42,351 nt of DNA from Escherichia phage vB_EcoM-ep3. Shown here one piece after another: positions 13,508 through 32,921 of this stretch; position 1 is the stretch's first letter; the number at the start of each line of letters is the position of its first letter. The notes beneath the pieces were generated by a model that did no database searches, had not been told where the DNA came from, and worked only from the letters and a program-made list of their open reading frames with translations. The stretch lies in sequence record NC_025430.1; one strand, 5' to 3'. The position numbers were made by a program, and so were the translations under genes.

Positions 13508-13942
13508 ATGGAATTACCGCGCACTGTGCAGGAAATAGCTGACGTTATTGGCCGTGAACGTGCGCTATATCTTATCGGACAACTACCAAAATTGTGGGTG
13601 CCATCGCAGCAGTACCACAAAGTAATTTTGTATGTGCCAAAGCGGATTCGGCCCAATGACCCCCTGGTGAAAATTCTTGGATGGAGTGACGCCAGCAAGA
13701 TGGTGCAGCACTTCGGTGGTGAAATGCTTCACCCGGCTAATTGCGAATACATTTACCGCCGTTTCATCCACAGCAGCATCAAGCGGATGCACAGCGAAGG
13801 AATGGACGCAAAAGCCATTGCGGAACTGCTGGACGTTTCAGAACGCACCGTGAAGCGGCACTGCACTGACAAACCCCACAAAGACACATCACCTGCAAAT
13901 GACAACACTCCCGAACGACTACTAACCGCTATGGGGCAATGA
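13508..13942 (+). CDS. Mor/C-family-like transcriptional activator (C-terminal HTH)
   Basis: 144 aa. HFGGEMLHPANCEYIYRRFIHSSIKRMHSEGMDAKAIAELLDVSERTVKRH parallels the Mu Mor core (LGGGQVYIP...RD..I...F.G.N..EL....GV....VY). It sits at the early/late boundary. Confidence 0.55.
   Translation: MELPRTVQEIADVIGRERALYLIGQLPKLWVPSQQYHKVILYVPKRIRPNDPLVKILGWSDASKMVQHFGGEMLHPANCEYIYRRFIHSSIKRMHSEGMDAKAIAELLDVSERTVKRHCTDKPHKDTSPANDNTPERLLTAMGQ
13868..13884 (+). promoter_or_regulatory. Late-motif copy 1 (15/17: GACAAACCCCACAAAGA)
   Basis: Inside the 3' end of the Mor-like gene. AACACT follows 19 nt downstream (13904-13909). It ends 62 nt before the holin ATG. Confidence 0.5.
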
Positions 13943-13946
13943 CGAA

Positions 13947-14267
13947 ATGGAGTTTTTCCAGAAATTTCTAGATAACATTGGGTGGGGCATCGCTGGCATA
14001 ATGGGTGCGCTGGTTTCGCTCCCGTTCCACGATGACATCAAATCTGTAAAGGCGCGCATCTGGTTCGTGTGTACCGGTGCAATCTGCGCTTACTTCCTGA
14101 CAGACCTGGTTTCTTTGTATTTCAAAATTGATCGCGGGCTGGCTGGTAGTGTTGGCTTTCTTATGGGGGCATTTGGCGGTTCGCTGCTTGCTGCTGTCAT
14201 CCGGGCCATCAAAGCAGCAGACATTTGGCAACTCCTGAAAAACCGCTTCGGTGGGGGTAACGTATGA
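13947..14267 (+). CDS. Holin-like membrane protein (three predicted TM segments)
   Basis: 106 aa. Hydrophobic stretches GWGIAGIMGALVSLPF, IWFVCTGAICAYFLTDLVSLYF and GLAGSVGFLMGAFGGSLLAAVI. It is the first gene of the lysis cassette. Confidence 0.65.
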   Translation: MEFFQKFLDNIGWGIAGIMGALVSLPFHDDIKSVKARIWFVCTGAICAYFLTDLVSLYFKIDRGLAGSVGFLMGAFGGSLLAAVIRAIKAADIWQLLKNRFGGGNV

Positions 14268-16240: not shown

Positions 16241-18248
16241 CCCGTTTGCCAACATTGAAGGCATTGACCAGGCTATCCGGCGCGCACAACAACAATTGTT
16301 GCCGCCGCCAGACATGAAGCCGTCAGAGTGGGCGCAGGCTAATATCCGCATTCCGTCTGGCAACGCCGTGCCAGGACCGCTGCGCCTGGATAACGCGCCA
16401 TACCAGCGCGAACCAATGGACATGCTGGTTGACCCTGATTGCTACCGTGTAACGCTGATGTGGGGCGCGCAGGTGGGCAAAACCATGCTGGCACTGTGCG
16501 TGCAGGCGTACAGCGTAGCCGCTGAACCGCGCAGCCAGATGATGATGCAGCCAAGCCAGGATGACTTGCGCACCTGGCTGGAAACGAAATTCAACCCTCT
16601 GGCGGAAGAATGCGCGCCGGTAAACAACGCCATTGCCAAACCGCGTGGCCGCGACGGGGTGAACAACCAGAAAATGAAATCATACCCTGGCGGGTTCTTG
16701 ATGTTCGCCTGGTCCGGTTCGCCAAAGACCATGCGCGGGCGTTCAGCGCCGCTGATTGTATGTGACGAGGTAGACGGATATGAACGAACCAGCGAAGGGC
16801 ACCCGGTTGGCCTGCTGTGGCAGCGTTCTGCCACCTTCGGTGACCAGCGGTTTTTGCTGGAAATCAGCACCCCTACCCTTAAAGGTGAATCGTACATCGA
16901 AAAAGCGTATGAAATGGGCGACCAGCGGCACTTCTTTGTTTGCTGCCCGCACTGTGACGATCACGTTACGCTTGAATGGGAAAACGTCAAATGGGATGGC
17001 CAGCGGGAAACTGACGCGGAAACGCTGGCGGCCATCGAAGAACAGAAGCCGGAAACAGCGCACCTGTATTGCCCATCGTGCGGCGCGCAGTGGAATGACG
17101 GCGAACGGATAGCGGCTATCCGTCAGGCCGAAGAAAAGGGCGCAGGCTGGAAGGCGTCCAGGCCGTTTGAAGGGCACGCAAGCTACCACCTGAACGAACT
17201 ATACAGCACATTCCGCAAAGTACCGGCCATCGTGCGTGACTACCTGGACAAGCTGAAAACGGACGACCTGCAAACCTTCACCAACGTCAGCCTGGCGCGC
17301 ACCTGGGAAGAAGAAGGCGACAAGGTTGACCCGGATTCACTGATGGCACGCCGCGAGGAATACGCCGCGCAGGTGCCTGCTGGTGGGCTGTATATCACCG
17401 CAGGCATAGACATGCAGGTTGACCGCCTGGAATGTGAGGTGGTGGCCTGGGGCGTTGGTGAAGAATCCTGGTCATTGGGTTACCACGTCCTGTGGGGCGA
17501 CCCTCTGACGCCAGATCCGTGGGATGCGCTTGATGACCTGCTGGCGGAAACCTACCAGCACGAAACCGGCGCAGTGCTGCCGATCATGGCCGCCTGCCTG
17601 GATACCGGCGGCACCAGCGGTTACACGCAGGCCGCCTATGACTACGCCAGAGGGCGCACAGGCCGCCGCCTGTTTGCCATCAAAGGAGTGGGCGGTTGGG
17701 GTCGTCCTATCGTGGAGAAGCCGCAGCGCAAGCAATCCGGGAAGGATGCCCGCAAAGTGGATTTATTCCTGGTGGGCACCGATGAAGCCAAGCTGATAAC
17801 TGCACGCCGTTTAAACAAGACGGCACCGGGGCCAGGTTATTGCCACTTCCCTGCTGACCGCGATGAAGAATGGTTTAAGCAAATCACCGCTGAAAAGCTG
17901 ACCATGCGTTACGTGAAGGGCCAGCCAATCCGCGAGTGGAAGAAACCCGACCGGGCGCGCAACGAAGCACTGGACTGCCGCAACTATGCGCTGGCCGCGC
18001 TTAAAATCATGCAGCCGTCATTCCGCCGCCTGGCTGAAAAGTTTGGCGTAGCGAACGACAACGCGCCACCGGAACGCCGCAAGCGGCTTCCGAACGTCAA
18101 ACCCATCGTGAAACCGGTGGAAGTGCCGCAACCGGCCAATGACAAACCCCAAGAAGAAGAAAAACAGCAAGTCACAGAGACTAAGCCCATTAAACGTTCC
18201 GCCAGGGCATCCAAACGCCGTGGCGGTGGATGGGTTAGCCGCTGGTGA
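16200..18248 (+). CDS. Terminase large subunit (lambda gpA family)
   Basis: 682 aa with a gpA-like N-terminus (PSEWAQANIRIPSGNAVPGPLRLDNAPYQREPMD). An alternative in-frame GTG start at 16224 lies behind AAGGGGG. Confidence 0.9.
   Translation: MAMTKGATVTAKNNPFANIEGIDQAIRRAQQQLLPPPDMKPSEWAQANIRIPSGNAVPGPLRLDNAPYQREPMDMLVDPDCYRVTLMWGAQVGKTMLALCVQAYSVAAEPRSQMMMQPSQDDLRTWLETKFNPLAEECAPVNNAIAKPRGRDGVNNQKMKSYPGGFLMFAWSGSPKTMRGRSAPLIVCDEVDGYERTSEGHPVGLLWQRSATFGDQRFLLEISTPTLKGESYIEKAYEMGDQRHFFVCCPHCDDHVTLEWENVKWDGQRETDAETLAAIEEQKPETAHLYCPSCGAQWNDGERIAAIRQAEEKGAGWKASRPFEGHASYHLNELYSTFRKVPAIVRDYLDKLKTDDLQTFTNVSLARTWEEEGDKVDPDSLMARREEYAAQVPAGGLYITAGIDMQVDRLECEVVAWGVGEESWSLGYHVLWGDPLTPDPWDALDDLLAETYQHETGAVLPIMAACLDTGGTSGYTQAAYDYARGRTGRRLFAIKGVGGWGRPIVEKPQRKQSGKDARKVDLFLVGTDEAKLITARRLNKTAPGPGYCHFPADRDEEWFKQITAEKLTMRYVKGQPIREWKKPDRARNEALDCRNYALAALKIMQPSFRRLAEKFGVANDNAPPERRKRLPNVKPIVKPVEVPQPANDKPQEEEKQQVTETKPIKRSARASKRRGGGWVSRW
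18141..18157 (+). promoter_or_regulatory. Late-motif copy 2 (exact GACAAACCCCAAGAAGA)
   Basis: Inside the terL 3' end, where it encodes DKPQEE. GAGACT follows 19 nt downstream (18177-18182). It ends 97 nt before the next gene start at 18255. Confidence 0.5.
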
Positions 18249-18794: not shown

Positions 18795-20350
18795 TGAAAC
18801 TGTGGCCATTTACCAGAAACAAGCCTGCCGAACAGGCACAACAGCCGCGCACGCGGCGTTTACCGCTTAACCGCCTGGCGTCCCGTATGTTTACCGGTGC
18901 CAGTGTTGACCGTTTTGGCACCGCGTGGGGTACACAGCCGCTGACGGCTGATGAAGTCATTACCAAAAATCAACGCATCCTGGTGGCCCGTTCCCGCGAA
19001 CAGGCCGCCAACAATGATTATGCCAAAAAGTTCCTGCGTCTGTGCCGCACAAACATTGTGGGGCCAAAAGGCGTTCTGTTGCAGGCAAAAAGCCAGGATA
19101 ACACCGGAAAACTGGACACCCTGGCGAATGAAGCCATTGAACTGGCGTTTGACGCATGGGGCAAAAAGACCAACTGTGACGTGACCGGTAAGTTGTCCTG
19201 GCGCGCCATCCAGGCCGCCTGCGTCAACAGCGTGGCCAAAGACGGTGAATTCTTCGTGCGCCTGGTGTTTGGGGCTGACGCAGGGCCGTGGGGCTTCTCG
19301 CTGCAACTGCTGGACCCGCAACGCTGTCCTGTGGACATGGTTGAAGATCGACTGCCAAACGGAAATTTCATCCGCCAGGGAATCGAGTTTAACCGATACG
19401 GGCGGCCTATCGCGTATTATTTCAGCACAGTTGATGAATCGGATGAAAACTACCGTTGGGCTGGGCGTGACTTCGTGCGCGTGCCTGCGGATGAAATCCT
19501 GCACGGTTTCTTTGATGACATGGTGGGCCAGAAACGCGGCCTGCCCTGGATGGCCACCAGCCTGTTTCGTATGCGCCACCTGGGCGGCATGGAAGAAGCC
19601 GCACTGGTCAACGCGCGAGCAGGTGCCAACAAAATGGGGTTCATCGAATGGGATGAAAACGGCGCTGGACCTGAATTCGACGATGAAGACGAACTGATCA
19701 TTGACAGTGAACCGGGTGAATTCCAGGTGCTGCCACAGGGCGCACGCATCAAAGACTGGTCACCGCAATACCCCAACGGCGAATTTGCCGTGTTCACCAA
19801 ACAGATGCTGCGCGGCATGGCTTCTGGCATGGGCGTGGCTTACAACAACCTGGCCAACGACCTGGAAGGCGTCAATTTCAGTTCCATCCGACAGGGCACG
19901 CTTGACGAGCGCGAAAGCTGGAAGGAATTGCAGGAATGGCTAATCGAAAACCTGCACCAGCCTGTTTTTGACGCCTGGCTGCCGCGCGCCCTGCTGTCTG
20001 GACGCATCACGGTGAAAGGCCGCAGCCTGAAACCGGAACGCATAGACCGTTACAGCAATATTGAATGGCAGCCACGCCGTTGGGCCTGGATTGACCCGTC
20101 ATCTGACGTGGAAGCGGCTGAAAAATCAAAAAACAACATGCTGCAATCGCCTGGCCGCATCATCCGTGAAGGTGGCAGCGACCCTGACACCGTTTGGAAG
20201 GAAACCGCTAGCGACGTGGCACGCATGATTGAGGCGTACACGCAGCACGGTATCAGCCGAGAAATGGCGGAAAAACTGGTCATGCAAAGCATGGGCATGG
20301 ACAAAACACTGTTAATGGGGCAGCAAAATGCAGAAAAACCTGCTGAATAG
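18794..20350 (+). CDS. Portal protein (lambda gpB family)
   Basis: 518 aa with a TGATG overlap to the upstream gene. The size, position and overall sequence pattern are typical of lambda-family portals. Confidence 0.85.
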   Translation: MKLWPFTRNKPAEQAQQPRTRRLPLNRLASRMFTGASVDRFGTAWGTQPLTADEVITKNQRILVARSREQAANNDYAKKFLRLCRTNIVGPKGVLLQAKSQDNTGKLDTLANEAIELAFDAWGKKTNCDVTGKLSWRAIQAACVNSVAKDGEFFVRLVFGADAGPWGFSLQLLDPQRCPVDMVEDRLPNGNFIRQGIEFNRYGRPIAYYFSTVDESDENYRWAGRDFVRVPADEILHGFFDDMVGQKRGLPWMATSLFRMRHLGGMEEAALVNARAGANKMGFIEWDENGAGPEFDDEDELIIDSEPGEFQVLPQGARIKDWSPQYPNGEFAVFTKQMLRGMASGMGVAYNNLANDLEGVNFSSIRQGTLDERESWKELQEWLIENLHQPVFDAWLPRALLSGRITVKGRSLKPERIDRYSNIEWQPRRWAWIDPSSDVEAAEKSKNNMLQSPGRIIREGGSDPDTVWKETASDVARMIEAYTQHGISREMAEKLVMQSMGMDKTLLMGQQNAEKPAE

Positions 20351-22376
20351 CATCATTGGGGCCGAATTTACCCGCAAATCAGACAGCAAAACGCTGCCTG
20401 ATTTCAACAAAGGCGGGCTGGTGCGCACTATGGAAGTGCGCAAGTTTGACACCGAAAAACGCACCGTAGAACTGGCGTTTTCCTCCGAAATCGAGGTTGA
20501 ACGCTGGTACGGTATCGAAATTCTGGACCATTCGCCGGAAAGCGTGCGCCTGGACCGTCTGCGTGACGGTGGGGCGCTGCTGGTTGACCACGATTGGACT
20601 GACCAGGTGGGCGTTGTTGAATCCGTCAGCATTGACGCTGACCGCCGGGGGCGGGCTGTGGTGCGCTTTGGCCGAAGTGCACGCGCTGACGAGATTTTCC
20701 AGGACATCGTTGACGGCATTCGCAAGCATGTTTCCGTTGGCTACCGCGTGTTAGCGGCCAAGCTACAGGAAACGCGTGACGAGTGGCAGGATGTCTACCG
20801 CATCACTGAATGGGAACCGTTCGAAATTTCAATTGTGAGCGTTCCCGCTGACACCAGCGTTGGCATTGGGCGTGCGTTTGACAAACCCCAAGAAGAACAA
20901 CGCGGCATCAAATCCGATACTGCGGGCACCGTAGAGGTTCCAGCACCAAAAAAATCATTTGAGGATTCACGAATGTTAGAAAAAATTCTGCGCGACGCTG
21001 CCGGTAACCTGGTGCGCGCGATGGTAGACGAGAAAGGCAACATCACGCAGGTTCTGGAAATGCTGGAACGTGCTGGCGATGATGCGCGCAACGCTGAACA
21101 GCGTGGCCGTGAAGCGGAAAAGGCGCGCGTGCGTTCCATCACTGAAATGGGCGAGAAGTACAACGCACGTGACCTGGCTTTGAAAGCTATTGGCGAAGGC
21201 ACCACCGCCGAAGATTTCCAGCGTTCCTTGCTGGACCACCTGAACAAGCCGAAAGACCCGGCACAACCGGCTGATGACACCCGTTCCGGCAGCAAGCCGC
21301 TGTCAGAAATGCCGTCCAGCGTGATTGGTATGTCTGACAAAGACATCCGCCGCTATAGCATTTTCAACGTGGTTCGCGCGCTGGCTAACCCGAACGATGC
21401 AGCCGCACAGCGTGCCGCAGCGTTTGAAATCGAATGCAGCCACGCAGCGCAACAGCAGTATGGCCGCAGTGCAAAAGGCATCCTGATCCCTGACGATGTT
21501 CTGCGCGCATTCAACGCTGGTGGCGCACCGAACACCCCGACAGGTGCACAGACCGGTTCCAACCTGGTTGGCACTGACTTTATGGCCAGTTCGTTCATCG
21601 ACCTGCTGCGCCCGCGTACCACCATCATGCGCCTGGCGCGTACTATGGGCGGCCTGGTTGGCAACGTTGAAATTCCGAAACAGACTGGCGGCGCTACTGC
21701 CTACTGGATTGGTGAAGGTGATGACGCAACCGAAACCACGCCGACCATCGGCCAGCTTAGTTTGTCACCGAAAACCGTTGCGGCTTACACCGACATTACC
21801 CGCCGCCTGCTGATGCAATCCACCCCGGATGCGGAAGCTATCGTGCGCGGTGACCTGGTGGCAGCTATCGCGCAGGCGATTGATTACGCTGGCTACTACG
21901 GCACCGGCACCAGCAACCAGCCGCTGGGTCTGGCGAACTACACCGGCATTAATGCGGTAGACTTCGCAGCAGCCAACCCGACTTATGCGGAACTGGTGCA
22001 GATGGAAACCGAAATCGCGGCTGACAACGCTGACGTGAACAACATGGCATATGTGCTGAACGCGCGTGGCCGTGGTGCAGCGAAAACCACGCCGAAGTTT
22101 GCCAGTGGTTCTTCCGTGGCTGACGCTGGCGTGATTTGGGAACCGGGCAACACCCTGAACGGTTACCGCGCCGAAGTTACCAACCAGGTTCAGGATGGTG
22201 ACGTGTTCTTTGGCAACTTCGCTGACTTGGTTGTTGGTATGTGGGGCGGCCTGGACATGACGGTTGACCCGTATAGCCTGAGCAAATCCGGTGGCCTGCG
22301 CATCGTGGTATTCCAGGACGTGGATTTTGCGGTGCGCCGCGTTGAATCCTTCTGCCTGGGCCGCAACGCAGCATAA
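20328..22376 (+). CDS. Prohead serine protease (HK97 S78 type) fused in frame to scaffold-like linker and HK97-fold major capsid protein
   Basis: 682 aa. The N-terminal ~185 aa is protease-like (RTVELAFSSEIEVERWYG...HDWTDQVGVVES...ISIVSVPAD). A coiled-coil region follows, then a C-terminal MCP pattern (GSNLVGTDFMASSFIDLLRPRTTIMRLA...AYWIGEGD). Confidence 0.8.
   Translation: MQKNLLNSIIGAEFTRKSDSKTLPDFNKGGLVRTMEVRKFDTEKRTVELAFSSEIEVERWYGIEILDHSPESVRLDRLRDGGALLVDHDWTDQVGVVESVSIDADRRGRAVVRFGRSARADEIFQDIVDGIRKHVSVGYRVLAAKLQETRDEWQDVYRITEWEPFEISIVSVPADTSVGIGRAFDKPQEEQRGIKSDTAGTVEVPAPKKSFEDSRMLEKILRDAAGNLVRAMVDEKGNITQVLEMLERAGDDARNAEQRGREAEKARVRSITEMGEKYNARDLALKAIGEGTTAEDFQRSLLDHLNKPKDPAQPADDTRSGSKPLSEMPSSVIGMSDKDIRRYSIFNVVRALANPNDAAAQRAAAFEIECSHAAQQQYGRSAKGILIPDDVLRAFNAGGAPNTPTGAQTGSNLVGTDFMASSFIDLLRPRTTIMRLARTMGGLVGNVEIPKQTGGATAYWIGEGDDATETTPTIGQLSLSPKTVAAYTDITRRLLMQSTPDAEAIVRGDLVAAIAQAIDYAGYYGTGTSNQPLGLANYTGINAVDFAAANPTYAELVQMETEIAADNADVNNMAYVLNARGRGAAKTTPKFASGSSVADAGVIWEPGNTLNGYRAEVTNQVQDGDVFFGNFADLVVGMWGGLDMTVDPYSLSKSGGLRIVVFQDVDFAVRRVESFCLGRNAA
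20880..20896 (+). promoter_or_regulatory. Late-motif copy 3 (exact GACAAACCCCAAGAAGA)
   Basis: At the protease/linker junction, where it encodes DKPQEE. GATACT follows 19 nt downstream (20916-20921). It ends 76 nt before the internal ATG at 20973. Confidence 0.5.
20973..22376 (+). CDS. Possible nested in-frame product: scaffold(delta)-major capsid protein from an internal start
   Basis: ATG 20973 lies 7 nt after a GAGGA RBS inside the fusion ORF. The product would begin MLEKILRDAAGNLVRAMVDEKGN..., a coiled-coil delta-domain-like N-terminus. Confidence 0.45.
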   Translation: MLEKILRDAAGNLVRAMVDEKGNITQVLEMLERAGDDARNAEQRGREAEKARVRSITEMGEKYNARDLALKAIGEGTTAEDFQRSLLDHLNKPKDPAQPADDTRSGSKPLSEMPSSVIGMSDKDIRRYSIFNVVRALANPNDAAAQRAAAFEIECSHAAQQQYGRSAKGILIPDDVLRAFNAGGAPNTPTGAQTGSNLVGTDFMASSFIDLLRPRTTIMRLARTMGGLVGNVEIPKQTGGATAYWIGEGDDATETTPTIGQLSLSPKTVAAYTDITRRLLMQSTPDAEAIVRGDLVAAIAQAIDYAGYYGTGTSNQPLGLANYTGINAVDFAAANPTYAELVQMETEIAADNADVNNMAYVLNARGRGAAKTTPKFASGSSVADAGVIWEPGNTLNGYRAEVTNQVQDGDVFFGNFADLVVGMWGGLDMTVDPYSLSKSGGLRIVVFQDVDFAVRRVESFCLGRNAA

Positions 22377-22381
22377 TGAAC

Positions 22382-22401
22382 ATGGCCGCTTCGGCGGCCA
22401 T
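22382..22401 (+). terminator. GC-rich hairpin after the capsid gene (attenuator or mRNA stabiliser; no T-run)
   Basis: ATGGCCGC-TTCG-GCGGCCAT, 5 nt after the capsid stop codon. Confidence 0.4.
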
Positions 22402-22427: not shown

Positions 22428-22730
22428 ATGTCTGGTACTTATGTACTGAAATTGACTTCCGCTATTGCTATCAGCGGCGAAGTCATGAAAGCGGGTTCAC
22501 TGGTTGAGGTTTCAGAGCTTGAGGCTAAAAACCTGTTGTCGCGCGGCAAGGCAGAGATGCACGACGAACAACCAGCACGTGATGACGATGTTGAAATCAC
22601 GAAAATGAACAAAGATCAGCTTATCGCTATTGCAGAGCAGATGGAAATTGAAGGCGCTGACAAGATGACCAAAGCGCAGTTGATTGAAGCCATCGAAGCC
22701 GCAGGCGAAATCAAAGAGGGTGACGAATAA
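22428..22730 (+). CDS. Hypothetical head-module protein with two Rho_N/SAP-like helical repeats
   Basis: 100 aa with an AGGAGA RBS. The repeats are MNKDQLIAIAEQMEIEG and MTKAQLIEAIEAAGEI. Confidence 0.55.
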   Translation: MSGTYVLKLTSAIAISGEVMKAGSLVEVSELEAKNLLSRGKAEMHDEQPARDDDVEITKMNKDQLIAIAEQMEIEGADKMTKAQLIEAIEAAGEIKEGDE

Positions 22731-23086
22731 TGCAACACGGCACATCTGTAACGGTTCTGGCCGCACCAGCAACAATCACAGCCAGCGGCAACGGTTCAGC
22801 CGTCAACGTTGGTGATTATCATGGCCTGTGCCTGCTTCACCTTAACGGCATCGGCACTGCTGGCACCACCACTGTAAGCCTGCAACACAGTGATGACGGT
22901 TCAACCAATTGGGCTGACGTACCCAACACCACTTTTGCGCAGATCAGCACCGCAGCTAAGGCTGACACGATCCTGTTTAATGCTGACCGATTCAAAAAAT
23001 TTGTCCGCGTGAAGGATGTTTCAGCCAGTTCCGGTTCGGCAATCCGCAGCGTTGTGCTGGTTGGCAATAAGCGGGAATCACAGTAA
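22730..23086 (+). CDS. Hypothetical head/connector-module protein
   Basis: 118 aa with a TAATG overlap to the upstream gene. It is Thr/Ser/Ala-rich and looks beta-rich. Confidence 0.55.
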   Translation: MQHGTSVTVLAAPATITASGNGSAVNVGDYHGLCLLHLNGIGTAGTTTVSLQHSDDGSTNWADVPNTTFAQISTAAKADTILFNADRFKKFVRVKDVSASSGSAIRSVVLVGNKRESQ

Positions 23087-25181: not shown

Positions 25182-25198
25182 GACAAACCCCAAGAAGA
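25182..25198 (+). promoter_or_regulatory. Late-motif copy 4 (exact GACAAACCCCAAGAAGA)
   Basis: Intergenic, 3 nt after the gpV stop. CATCAT follows 20 nt downstream (25219-25224). It ends 33 nt before the gpW ATG. Confidence 0.5.
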
Positions 25199-31404: not shown

Positions 31405-31421
31405 GACAAACCCCAAGAAGA
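31405..31421 (+). promoter_or_regulatory. Late-motif copy 5 (exact GACAAACCCCAAGAAGA)
   Basis: Intergenic, 3 nt after the terminator T-run. GACCAT follows 19 nt downstream (31441-31446). It ends 72 nt before the sheath ATG. Confidence 0.55.
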
Positions 31422-31493: not shown

Positions 31494-32921
31494 ATGGCAG
31501 GTACTGATTTTTTACATGGCGTGGAGGTGCTGGAAATTGATTCCGGTTCACGCGTCATTCAAACCGTTAAATCAAGCGTCATCGGTATTGTTGGCACCGC
31601 GCCAAATGCTGACCCTGACGCATTCCCGCTAAACACCCCAACCCTGATTGCAGGCAGCCAGCGCGAAGCGGCCAAACTGGACATGCTTGGCACCGGTGAA
31701 GGCACCCTTCCCAAAGCACTGGATGCCATCCTGGACCAGATCGGCGCTGTGGTCATCGTTGTGCGTGTTGAAGAAGGCGAAAACGAAGCCGCAACGCTGG
31801 CCAACATCATGGGTGGAGTTAACGCATCAACCGGCAAATATGAAGGCGTTCACGCACTGCTTGGCGCTGAATCCGTTGTGGGCTACTCGCCGCGCATTCT
31901 GTGCGTTCCCGGCTTCACGCATACCCGCGTTCAGGATGGCGTCACCGCTATCACCATCGGCAACGGCGGCAGCGGTTACACCGAAGCGCCTACGGTCACC
32001 CTGGCTGGTGGCGGCGGTGGTTCTGGCGCAACTGCGCAAGCAACCGTGGTTGGTGGCGTCATCACCAAAATCATCGTCACCAACGCTGGCATGGGTTACA
32101 CCAAAGCGCCAACCGTCACCATCACTGGCGGCAACGGCACCGGCGCAACTGCAACCGCATCCGTTGGTATCGCAGCCAATGCCGTGGTTTCTGAACTGCT
32201 TGGCATCGCCAACCGCCTGCGTGCTGTCATCATCGCTGACGGTCCAAACACCAACGACGCTGACGCCATCGCCTACCGCAAAGACTTTGGCAGCAAGCGC
32301 GTTTATGTGGTTGACCCAAAAGTGCTGGTGCTTGACGAGGATGGCACCACGATTACTGACTGGGCATCGCCGCGCGTGGCTGGACTGATTGCCCGCATCG
32401 ACAACGAGCGCGGTTTCTGGTGGTCACCATCAAACCAGGAAATCTATGGCATCCAGGGCACGGCCAGAACCATTGATTTCACCCTGGGTGACACGTCCAG
32501 CCGTGCAAACCTGCTGAACGAAAACGAAGTCACCACCATCATTCGCCAGGACGGTTTCCGCCTGTGGGGCAACCGCACCACTTCCAGCGATCCGAAATGG
32601 GCGTTTCTGTGCGTTGTTCGCACGGCTGACATCATCAATGACAGCCTGTTGCGTGCACACCTGTGGGCCGTAGACCGTGGCATCACCAAACAATACGTCA
32701 ATGACGTGATTGAAGGCGTGAACGCGTACCTGCGCAACCTGGTGAGCCTGGGCGCAATTCTTGGCGGCACGTGTTGGGCTGACCCTGACTTAAATACTGC
32801 TGACCAAATCGCTGACGGTAAGGTATACTTTGATTTTGATTTCACGCCTGTTTATCCGGCTGAACACATTATCTTCCGCAGCCAATTGACCAACGATTAT
32901 ATTAGTGAGGTATTCGAATAA
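31494..32921 (+). CDS. Tail sheath protein (P2 gpFI-like) with an internal duplicated insertion
   Basis: 475 aa with a sheath-type N-terminus ([32 protein letters not shown]) and C-terminus. Residues ~155-225 carry two copies of G.GYT.APTVT..GG.G.GATA.A.V. Confidence 0.85.

Follow-up and report, generated by a model that had tools for sequence, protein, structure and literature searches.

In HSV-1 (herpes simplex virus 1), the UL26 gene encodes a protein with an N-terminal protease, and UL26.5, an in-frame and 3'-coterminal gene with its own promoter, is nested inside the larger open reading frame (ORF). In phages lambda (C/Nu3) and Mu (I/Z), as well as in the archaeal virus HFTV1 (gp17/gp17.5), an internal in-frame start within a protease–scaffold ORF gives rise to an assembly protein without the protease; for HFTV1, the nesting was shown by ribosome profiling (preprint). 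Here, we describe the analysis of a head gene of Escherichia phage vB_EcoM-ep3, a Jilinvirus (Iiscvirinae) myophage, whose 42,351-nucleotide sequence record (NC_025430.1) is referred to below, at its full length, as the window. A single 682-codon ORF of this phage encodes a prohead protease, a scaffold-like segment and the major capsid protein (MCP). It is quite probable that, taken as a whole, two products come from this one frame, with a nested scaffold–capsid unit lying within the protease–scaffold–capsid gene. By analogy, the locus reads as a nested gene of the UL26/UL26.5 or C/Nu3 type that would extend through the capsid protein.

As in HSV-1, the protease of the phage ORF is N-terminal, and the nested frame, for which a promoter of its own is predicted, shares its 3' end with the larger one. 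Likewise, the nested product should be far more abundant, and the full-length form is predicted to carry the protease into the procapsid. In contrast to the phage ORF, in which the nested product spans the capsid protein, the nested product of HSV-1 is scaffold alone and the capsid gene is separate; the herpesvirus protease is assemblin, whereas that of the phage is of the Peptidase_S78 family. In lambda and HFTV1, the internal starts are translational and no internal promoter is reported; their capsid protein comes from a separate gene, and the lambda protease belongs to another family (S49/ClpP-like). Thus, what sets the phage apart from the nested-scaffold systems is that its nested ORF includes the whole capsid domain. 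The gp4 and gp5 proteins of HK97 belong to the same protease family (TIGR01543, Pfam S78) and the same capsid family (TIGR01554) as the two ends of the phage protein. In gp5, an N-terminal assembly domain is cut off by the protease, as is predicted for the phage protein, whose predicted mature capsid length is equal, 282 residues. However, protease and capsid protein have separate genes in HK97, where a C-terminal peptide targets the protease, while the phage ORF joins both proteins covalently and has a putative assembly domain of about 185 residues as compared with 102 in HK97.

The protease–capsid fusion itself is already known, from NCBIfam and PHROG families and from the papers on phages MD8 and Murka. 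PHROG 4523 is named 'major head and protease protein', ORF5 of PPpW-3 is annotated as 'major capsid protein and peptidase U35', and database annotation gives a single coding sequence for the fusion gene. The Murka paper states that the protease, the scaffold and the capsid protein are encoded as one propeptide of 684 amino acids, and the MD8 paper places all three functions in one gene, also as a single propeptide. The Murka, PPpW-3 and MD8 genes have the same protease–scaffold–capsid architecture as the gene studied here, but their descriptions speak of a single propeptide and mention neither an internal start nor a promoter, and the MD8 protease is given as ClpP-like. In the searchable literature, outside of which some key subscription papers lie, we found no prior report that a protease–capsid fusion has an internal start or an internal promoter, and a nested expression unit inside the fusion gene seems not to have been described before.

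A conserved candidate start site follows the protease domain

The 30 residues past the protease domain (residues 186–215, linker 1) have essentially zero protein conservation. At the end of this linker lies the GAGGA-N7-ATG that an earlier reading of the DNA letters, made without database searches (the sequence-only reading), had proposed as a strong internal start. The site is indeed present, in frame and conserved at the nucleotide level across relatives, and the duplex energy of its Shine–Dalgarno (SD) sequence is −6.0 kcal/mol. To describe its conservation, we used 85 non-redundant fused ORFs (pairwise less than 80% identical, and about 30–100% identical to the window protein). An in-frame linker ATG is present in all of them (85/85). 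The best linker ATG has an SD energy of −5 kcal/mol or lower in 82% of the 85, as compared with 12.5% of all other in-frame ATGs; in matched 150-codon windows of the capsid domain, though these are richer in ATGs, the share was 22% and 49% (paired Wilcoxon, 2e-11 and 7e-5). The same SD threshold was reached in 82% of the 60 loci that have a lone ATG within 60 codons past the protease. In R4C and VP882, the in-frame ATG with the best SD of the whole ORF stands directly after the protease domain.

The Met is kept at the linker end, right before the conserved block EKILRDxxGNLVRA, in relatives down to 40% identity, and the SD preceding it is encoded via peptides that differ by lineage (SEDSR, PEGIR, KRSGE, TEGSG). 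As the codons that make up the SD stand for different amino acids from lineage to lineage, the constraint acts on nucleotides. Four proteins of E. coli and Salmonella prophages (P0069, P0073, P0075, P0078) have Val or Leu in place of this Met, encoded by GTG in three of them and by TTG in one, each preceded by GAGG at 5–8 nucleotides. Ranked by mRNA structure, the region from −30 to +18 around the ATG belongs to the bottom 1.1% of positions in the window ORF, and in 73% of the relatives it falls in the least structured 10% (GC content of 48% versus 60% for the ORF). Judged from these signals, an in-frame internal initiation site is predicted 3' of the protease domain.

The literature account of such genes, as given for Murka and MD8, would make do with one polyprotein: all subunits would be the full 682-residue chain, processed after assembly, and the internal ATG, its SD and the late motif described below would have no role in expression. 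The single annotated coding sequence fits this account, as does the fact that neither a stop codon nor a frameshift signal separates the protease and capsid parts. It leaves unexplained, however, why the SD and ATG are conserved as nucleotides in a linker that is not conserved as protein, why replacements of the ATG are limited to GTG and TTG, why the initiation region is unstructured, and why a motif that varies between genomes keeps a constant position. It also implies that the procapsid contains as many proteases as capsid subunits. In HK97-type systems, the protease is by far the less numerous of the two. We regard a polyprotein as the only product as quite unlikely.

A late motif of constant position lies upstream of the candidate start

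The sequence-only reading had also placed a copy of a late motif, followed by GATACT, just upstream of the internal start. This copy, copy 3 in Table 1, is exact, and it is one of five copies of the 17-mer GACAAACCCCAAGAAGA in the window, all on the same (+) strand, whereas 0.10 would be expected by chance and none of 100 shuffled sequences reached five. Each copy is located 50–114 nucleotides upstream of a start codon. Its extended form in the linker, TGACAAACCCCAAGAAGAA, is the putative binding site of a late activator, and copy 2, at the end of the terminase gene, is a putative promoter for the head–tail joining, portal and full-length fusion genes.

Two related phages have motifs of their own at these positions: Arya carries GACACCCCGCACGAAGA at four of the five, and PPpW-3 carries CGGCAAACCCACAAGAGG at all five, the fusion-gene linker being among the positions in both. 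A hexamer of the form nAnnnT occurs exactly 18 nucleotides after the motif in 12/14 sites of the window, Arya and PPpW-3, and in the remaining 2 sites the distance is one base longer; in the linker it reads GATACT in the window, AATACT in Arya and CAAACT in PPpW-3. Owing to this fixed offset of a −10-like element, the transcription start is predicted near position 20928, which would put the motif at about −49 to −31. That start had been proposed before, and as a prediction from sequence it fits the hexamer well. The whole looks like a five-site late regulon, in which the sequence of the motif varies by genus and its positions are constant, and the motif probably co-evolves with the late-activator gene that adjoins copy 1.

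In the relatives, a test with repeated 11-mers had too high a background (68% of the control windows scored positive), and exact repeats of at least 14 nucleotides were used instead. Such a repeat, present in the linker and recurring elsewhere in the locus, was found in 39/85 relatives versus 28/560 control windows. In 37/39 of these relatives, it lies 40–62 nucleotides after codon 170, and its partner copy is about 1.9–2.3 kb upstream or 4.3–5.0 kb downstream, distances that in the window, Arya and PPpW-3 correspond to the terminase 3' end and to the baseplate V/W junction, respectively. The consensus of the linker repeats is near GGAAAnCCCnCnAGAGGAA.

The motif is read in one and the same frame in two proteins, as DKPQEE in the terminase large subunit (codons 648–653) and in the fusion linker (codons 185–190), and copy 1, read in that frame too, gives DKPHKD. 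Conceivably, the Met, the acidic residues that precede it and DKPQEE are kept for reasons of the protein itself, as a cleavage or recognition site or as a portal-binding peptide. The shared frame in the terminase tail and the linker would agree with that, and interdomain linkers are typical cleavage sites; however, motif copies 4 and 5 (25182 and 31405) are intergenic, the SD is made from unrelated amino acids across lineages, and Met gives way to Val or Leu solely via GTG and TTG codons. A constraint of this kind is highly improbable. Because DKPQEE is encoded in two proteins while two motif copies are non-coding, the DNA signal should dictate the peptide and not the reverse. It thus appears, as far as the sequences tell, that a transcription signal imposes its amino-acid sequence on the disordered tails of two unrelated proteins.

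The product of the putative activator gene matches PHROG 836, 'late transcriptional activator' (E = 1e-30), and its homologue in Arya bears the same annotation. Pfam gave matches to a generic helix-turn-helix (HTH), a LuxR-type HTH and sigma-70 region 4, all of them weak and near or below threshold, and no match to the Mor/C family.

In Mu, a few late promoters dependent on the C protein (Plys, PI, PP and Pmom) share a common upstream activator site and have a weak or absent −35 element and a recognisable −10. The Mu activator gene is located just before the lysis genes, and one of the promoters just before the genes for head protease, scaffold and capsid protein. As in the case of the late promoters of Mu (C) and P2 (Ogr), the putative activator gene in the window precedes the lysis genes, the predicted late promoters, one of them ahead of the genes for head protease, scaffold and capsid protein, share a motif with a weak or absent −35, and a −10-like element is found at fixed spacing. 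In contrast to Mu and P2, the activator is not detectably of the Mor/C type, and the motif is without dyad symmetry, two of its copies being embedded in coding sequence.

A plain sigma-70 promoter was considered for the linker and rejected: TTGACA at 20877–20882 is not followed by a −10 at 16–19 nucleotides, and a generic sigma-70 scan gave no call. For both reasons, we prefer an activator-dependent promoter.

Points that weigh against a promoter-driven nested unit

Several observations speak against the two-product reading or restrict it. A sigma-70 −35 at proper spacing is missing and the generic promoter scan is silent at the site, so promoter activity there would depend on the predicted activator. 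The recurring motif is absent from the linkers of a marine clade (about 40–45% identity) and of an E. coli prophage clade, both of which have the start site; hence, the internal promoter is not universal. As for the start itself, ATG 22257, which lies in a G-rich conserved protein motif of the window ORF, has an SD energy of −6.9 and exceeds the −6.0 of ATG 20973. With another in-frame ATG scoring equal or better, the SD and ATG of the window alone prove little. Moreover, charged residues abound in the linker, and this alone lowers both GC content and mRNA structure. The SD of the full-length start (−4.7) is just modestly weaker than that of the internal one, and the product ratio is therefore not settled by SD strength. 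No transcript, ribosome-profiling or N-terminal protein data were found for the phage or its relatives.

The internal start could also act by itself, on the long polycistronic late mRNA, with the 17-mer being no promoter but some other late element, for instance a site that binds an activator or repressor for a different role, or a site of RNA processing or stability. Lambda C/Nu3 operates in this way, and both the wider conservation of the start site than of the motif, as in the two clades just named, and the lack of a canonical −35/−10 pair point in this direction. They have to be set against the location of the motif copies upstream of operon starts, one of them directly between a terminator hairpin and the sheath gene, against the −10-like hexamer at a fixed 18-nucleotide offset in three genera, and against the presence of a dedicated late-activator gene in the genome. 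We consider translation alone an unlikely explanation for the phage.

In the E. coli and Salmonella prophages L084, L123, L124 and L125, the fusion protein is about 70% identical to that of the window, and the linker has a GTG or TTG internal start with GAGG and no recurring late motif. These prophages may rely on translational control alone.

Domains of the fusion protein and its relatives

The sequence-only reading had found a protease, a scaffold-like segment and an MCP in one 682-codon frame, and this reading was confirmed by Pfam and NCBIfam matches, by the uninterrupted ORF and by the fused state of the gene in relatives. The start of the ORF overlaps the 3' end of a lambda-type portal gene by 23 nucleotides. 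Residues 1–185 had been assigned to an HK97-type prohead serine protease. In agreement with that, Pfam Peptidase_S78 (PF04586) matches residues 84–176 (E = 1.5e-9), the protease part matches PHROG 80 and PHROG 3244 ('head maturation protease'), and TIGR01543 (HK97 prohead protease) scores 36 bits, which is under its 59-bit cut-off. When the protease part was compared with PDB sequences, no meaningful match came up. As H88, S136 and S168 are invariant among the 85 relatives, the protease looks active from its sequence, with H88 and S136 as candidate catalytic residues.

The C-terminal remainder, read before as an HK97-fold MCP, is matched by Phage_capsid (PF05065; residues 410–678, E = 2.7e-47). 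Residues 402–677 align to HK97 profile positions 105–382 of TIGR01554 (117.6 bits versus a cut-off of 27.5), and the capsid protein of roseophage R4C (PDB 8GTA) aligns to residues ~411–682 (E = 4.6e-71). The alignment with the HK97 profile sets the mature N-terminus near residue 401. In R4C, the gene is also fused (629 residues), and the solved capsid chain, which corresponds to its last 268 residues, aligns with the window protein from residue ~411 on. From these two observations, we infer that the parts N-terminal of about residue 401 are trimmed off.

A delta- or scaffold-like segment is present before the capsid domain, as had been claimed, but it ends at about residue 400, where the HK97-profile match is about to start (residue 402), and not at residue 330. 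It consists, in this order, of the N-terminal conserved block EKILRDxxGNLVRA, predicted helices (251–305), a variable linker 2 (311–330) and a second conserved block (331–400). The coiled coil proposed for residues 216–330 is unsupported as stated: a low-confidence AlphaFold model of the full-length protein (input alignment of 22 sequences; mean predicted local distance difference test (pLDDT) score of 43, predicted template modelling score of 0.27) gives three short strands at 217–247 and then three helices at 251–305 (helix pLDDT of 63–86). No sequence similarity of this region to the HK97 delta domain was detected. The NCBIfam family NF045541 (scaf_prot_MCP2, 'prohead protease/major capsid protein fusion protein') matches only residues 40–318, with 167 bits versus a cut-off of 525; by these scores, the window protein is of the NF045541-type architecture, in a different subfamily.

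Among 8,000 candidates scored, 4,822 were homologues at E ≤ 1e-5, and 3,682 clusters were obtained at E < 1e-30. The gene is fused in 120/120 of the best homologues of the 4,822 significant matches and, apart from a few shorter entries that are cut-off sequences, in the 150 best cluster representatives. It is also fused in 80 IMG/VR loci, in 33 bacterial-genome loci and in cultured phages of Pseudomonas, Xanthomonas, Vibrio (VP882), Halomonas (phiHAP-1), Rhodobacter, Dinoroseobacter (R4C) and Synechococcus. Every homologue examined was fused, and none had separate protease and MCP genes. Five coliphage and Salmonella phage isolates (HeidiAbel_Bas97, PT1, ECO1230-10, ECOO78 and Alux-21) are 95–97% identical to the window in DNA over the ORF region, Arya is 87% and KA2-1 is 85% identical; the window as such shares about 97% identity with HeidiAbel, PT1 and ECO1230-10. 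The fusion proteins of Murka and PPpW-3 are true homologues, with 48% and 68% identity, respectively.

Two apparent exceptions were examined and rejected. Protein P0148 (460 residues) seemed to be an unfused relative and begins exactly at the internal start, but its contig (L121) ends 73 nucleotides upstream and the frame is open to that point. Since the gene caller picked the internal ATG on a truncated contig in this case, database entries of about 460 residues in this family can be artefacts rather than unfused capsid genes. A Kushneria locus (L109), which matched only residues 330–682 and resembled a domain swap, has a normal fusion with an insert rich in Gly and Ser.

In this Kushneria sinocarnis prophage (ORF at 2286–4568 of L109), the long Gly/Ser-rich low-complexity insert is located in the second linker, at the equivalent of window residues 311–330, which indicates that this linker tolerates large insertions.

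Table 1. Features of the fusion gene, of its predicted nested unit and of the late motif; positions refer to the window except for the Arya and PPpW-3 sites.
Feature	Position	Strand	Remarks
Putative late transcriptional activator gene	13508..13942	+	144 residues; C-terminal HTH resembling sigma-70 region 4
Late-motif copy 1	13868..13884	+	2 mismatches; 3' end of activator gene; lysis cassette start at 13947, 79 nucleotides on
Late-motif copy 2	18141..18157	+	Exact; 3' end of large-terminase gene; next start that of head–tail joining gene, 18255
Full-length ORF	20328..22376	+	682 codons plus stop, ATG start; protease, scaffold-like segment, MCP
Prohead serine protease domain, Peptidase_S78	20433..20882	+	Residues ~36–185
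Candidate catalytic residues	H88, S136		Invariant in the 85 relatives
Late-motif copy 3, 17-mer	20880–20896	+	Exact; starts just upstream of linker 1 and runs into it
Late-motif copy 3, extended	20879..20897	+	Putative late-activator binding site, ~−49 to −31
Late-motif copy 3, downstream start	20880 to internal ATG 20973	+	Inside linker of fusion ORF
Hypervariable linker 1	20883..20972	+	Residues 186–215; holds −10-like hexamer, predicted 5' untranslated region, SD
−10-like hexamer GATACT	20916..20921	+	18 nucleotides after motif copy 3
SD sequence GAGGA	20961..20965	+	7 nucleotides before internal ATG
Internal ATG	20973–20975	+	In frame, codon 216
Nested in-frame ORF	20973..22376	+	M216 to stop, 467 codons; predicted scaffold and capsid protein without protease
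Scaffold/delta-like region	20973..21527	+	Residues 216 to ~400
HK97-fold MCP proper	21528..22373	+	Residues ~401–682, 282 residues
GC-rich hairpin	22382..22401	+	8-bp stem, core GGCCGC-TTCG-GCGGCC, 5 nucleotides past stop (22376)
Late-motif copy 4	25182..25198	+	Exact; intergenic, baseplate V/W; next start baseplate W, 25232
Late-motif copy 5	31405..31421	+	Exact; after terminator hairpin; tail sheath start at 31494, 89 nucleotides on
Motif sites in Arya (L119)	2510, 5262, 9535, 16419
Motif sites in PPpW-3 (L120)	2560, 5377, 9702, 14070, 41712

Proposed expression and maturation of the two products

In the two-product reading, upstream late transcripts, probably initiated at motif copy 2, would be translated from ATG 20328, and the full-length 682-residue polypeptide would be made in small amounts. 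Through its capsid domain, this form would co-assemble into the procapsid and carry the protease inside, the covalent link taking the place of the C-terminal peptide by which a free HK97-type protease is targeted. The activator-dependent late promoter predicted in the linker, with its motif, GATACT and start near 20928, would yield an mRNA of about 1.47 kb ending at the hairpin that follows the stop codon. On both the short and the long mRNA, ribosomes would begin at GAGGA-N7-ATG and produce an abundant scaffold–capsid protein of 467 residues. After assembly, the protease would trim everything N-terminal of about residue 401, leaving the 282-residue HK97-fold capsid protein.

Promoter, 5' untranslated region, SD, ATG, stop codon and hairpin would thus make up a nested unit that is complete in itself and about 1.47 kb long, as predicted from the sequence. 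The strong GC-rich hairpin after the stop codon, which has only a weak T-run, recurs in relatives. It is probably a partial or attenuating terminator, or a stabiliser of the mRNA 3' end, that closes the nested unit. Because the next late motif is found only at 25182, the head-completion genes downstream must be transcribed through this hairpin.

Two ORFs after the capsid gene were noted. The product of the first one (22428–22730, 100 residues) has Rho_N and DUF7210 matches, and its PHROGs label, 'endonuclease VII', is doubtful for a head-module gene. The product of the second one (22730–23086, 118 residues) has a weak F5/8 type C match and may be a jellyroll cement or minor capsid protein, as in phage Murka.

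Significance for head assembly

Protease–capsid fusion genes are common, as thousands of homologues and curated families attest. As long as they are annotated as single propeptides, it stays open how one gene can give hundreds of capsid subunits and yet few proteases. The conserved nested start, with a predicted late promoter of its own in one branch, offers a concrete and testable answer to this question of product ratio. On balance, we lean towards the broader view that a gene within a gene solves the stoichiometry throughout a clade of proteobacterial phages and prophages made up of Iiscvirinae, Foxunavirus, VP882/phiHAP-1-like phages, Cronusvirus/R4C-like phages and marine cyanosiphoviruses, with the late promoter confined to the Iiscvirinae-like branch and the rare full-length form as the sole vehicle of the protease. 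Usable model systems are HeidiAbel/Bas97 on E. coli K-12, VP882, and R4C with its solved capsid structure.

If this view is correct, the annotation of the fusion genes should list two products and not one. The phage gene would then be a bacterial-virus counterpart of herpesvirus UL26/UL26.5, running through the capsid protein, and DKPQEE in two unrelated proteins would clearly exemplify how a transcription signal can restrict the sequence of a protein. A common expression logic would link the head-assembly modules of bacterial viruses, archaeal viruses and herpesviruses.

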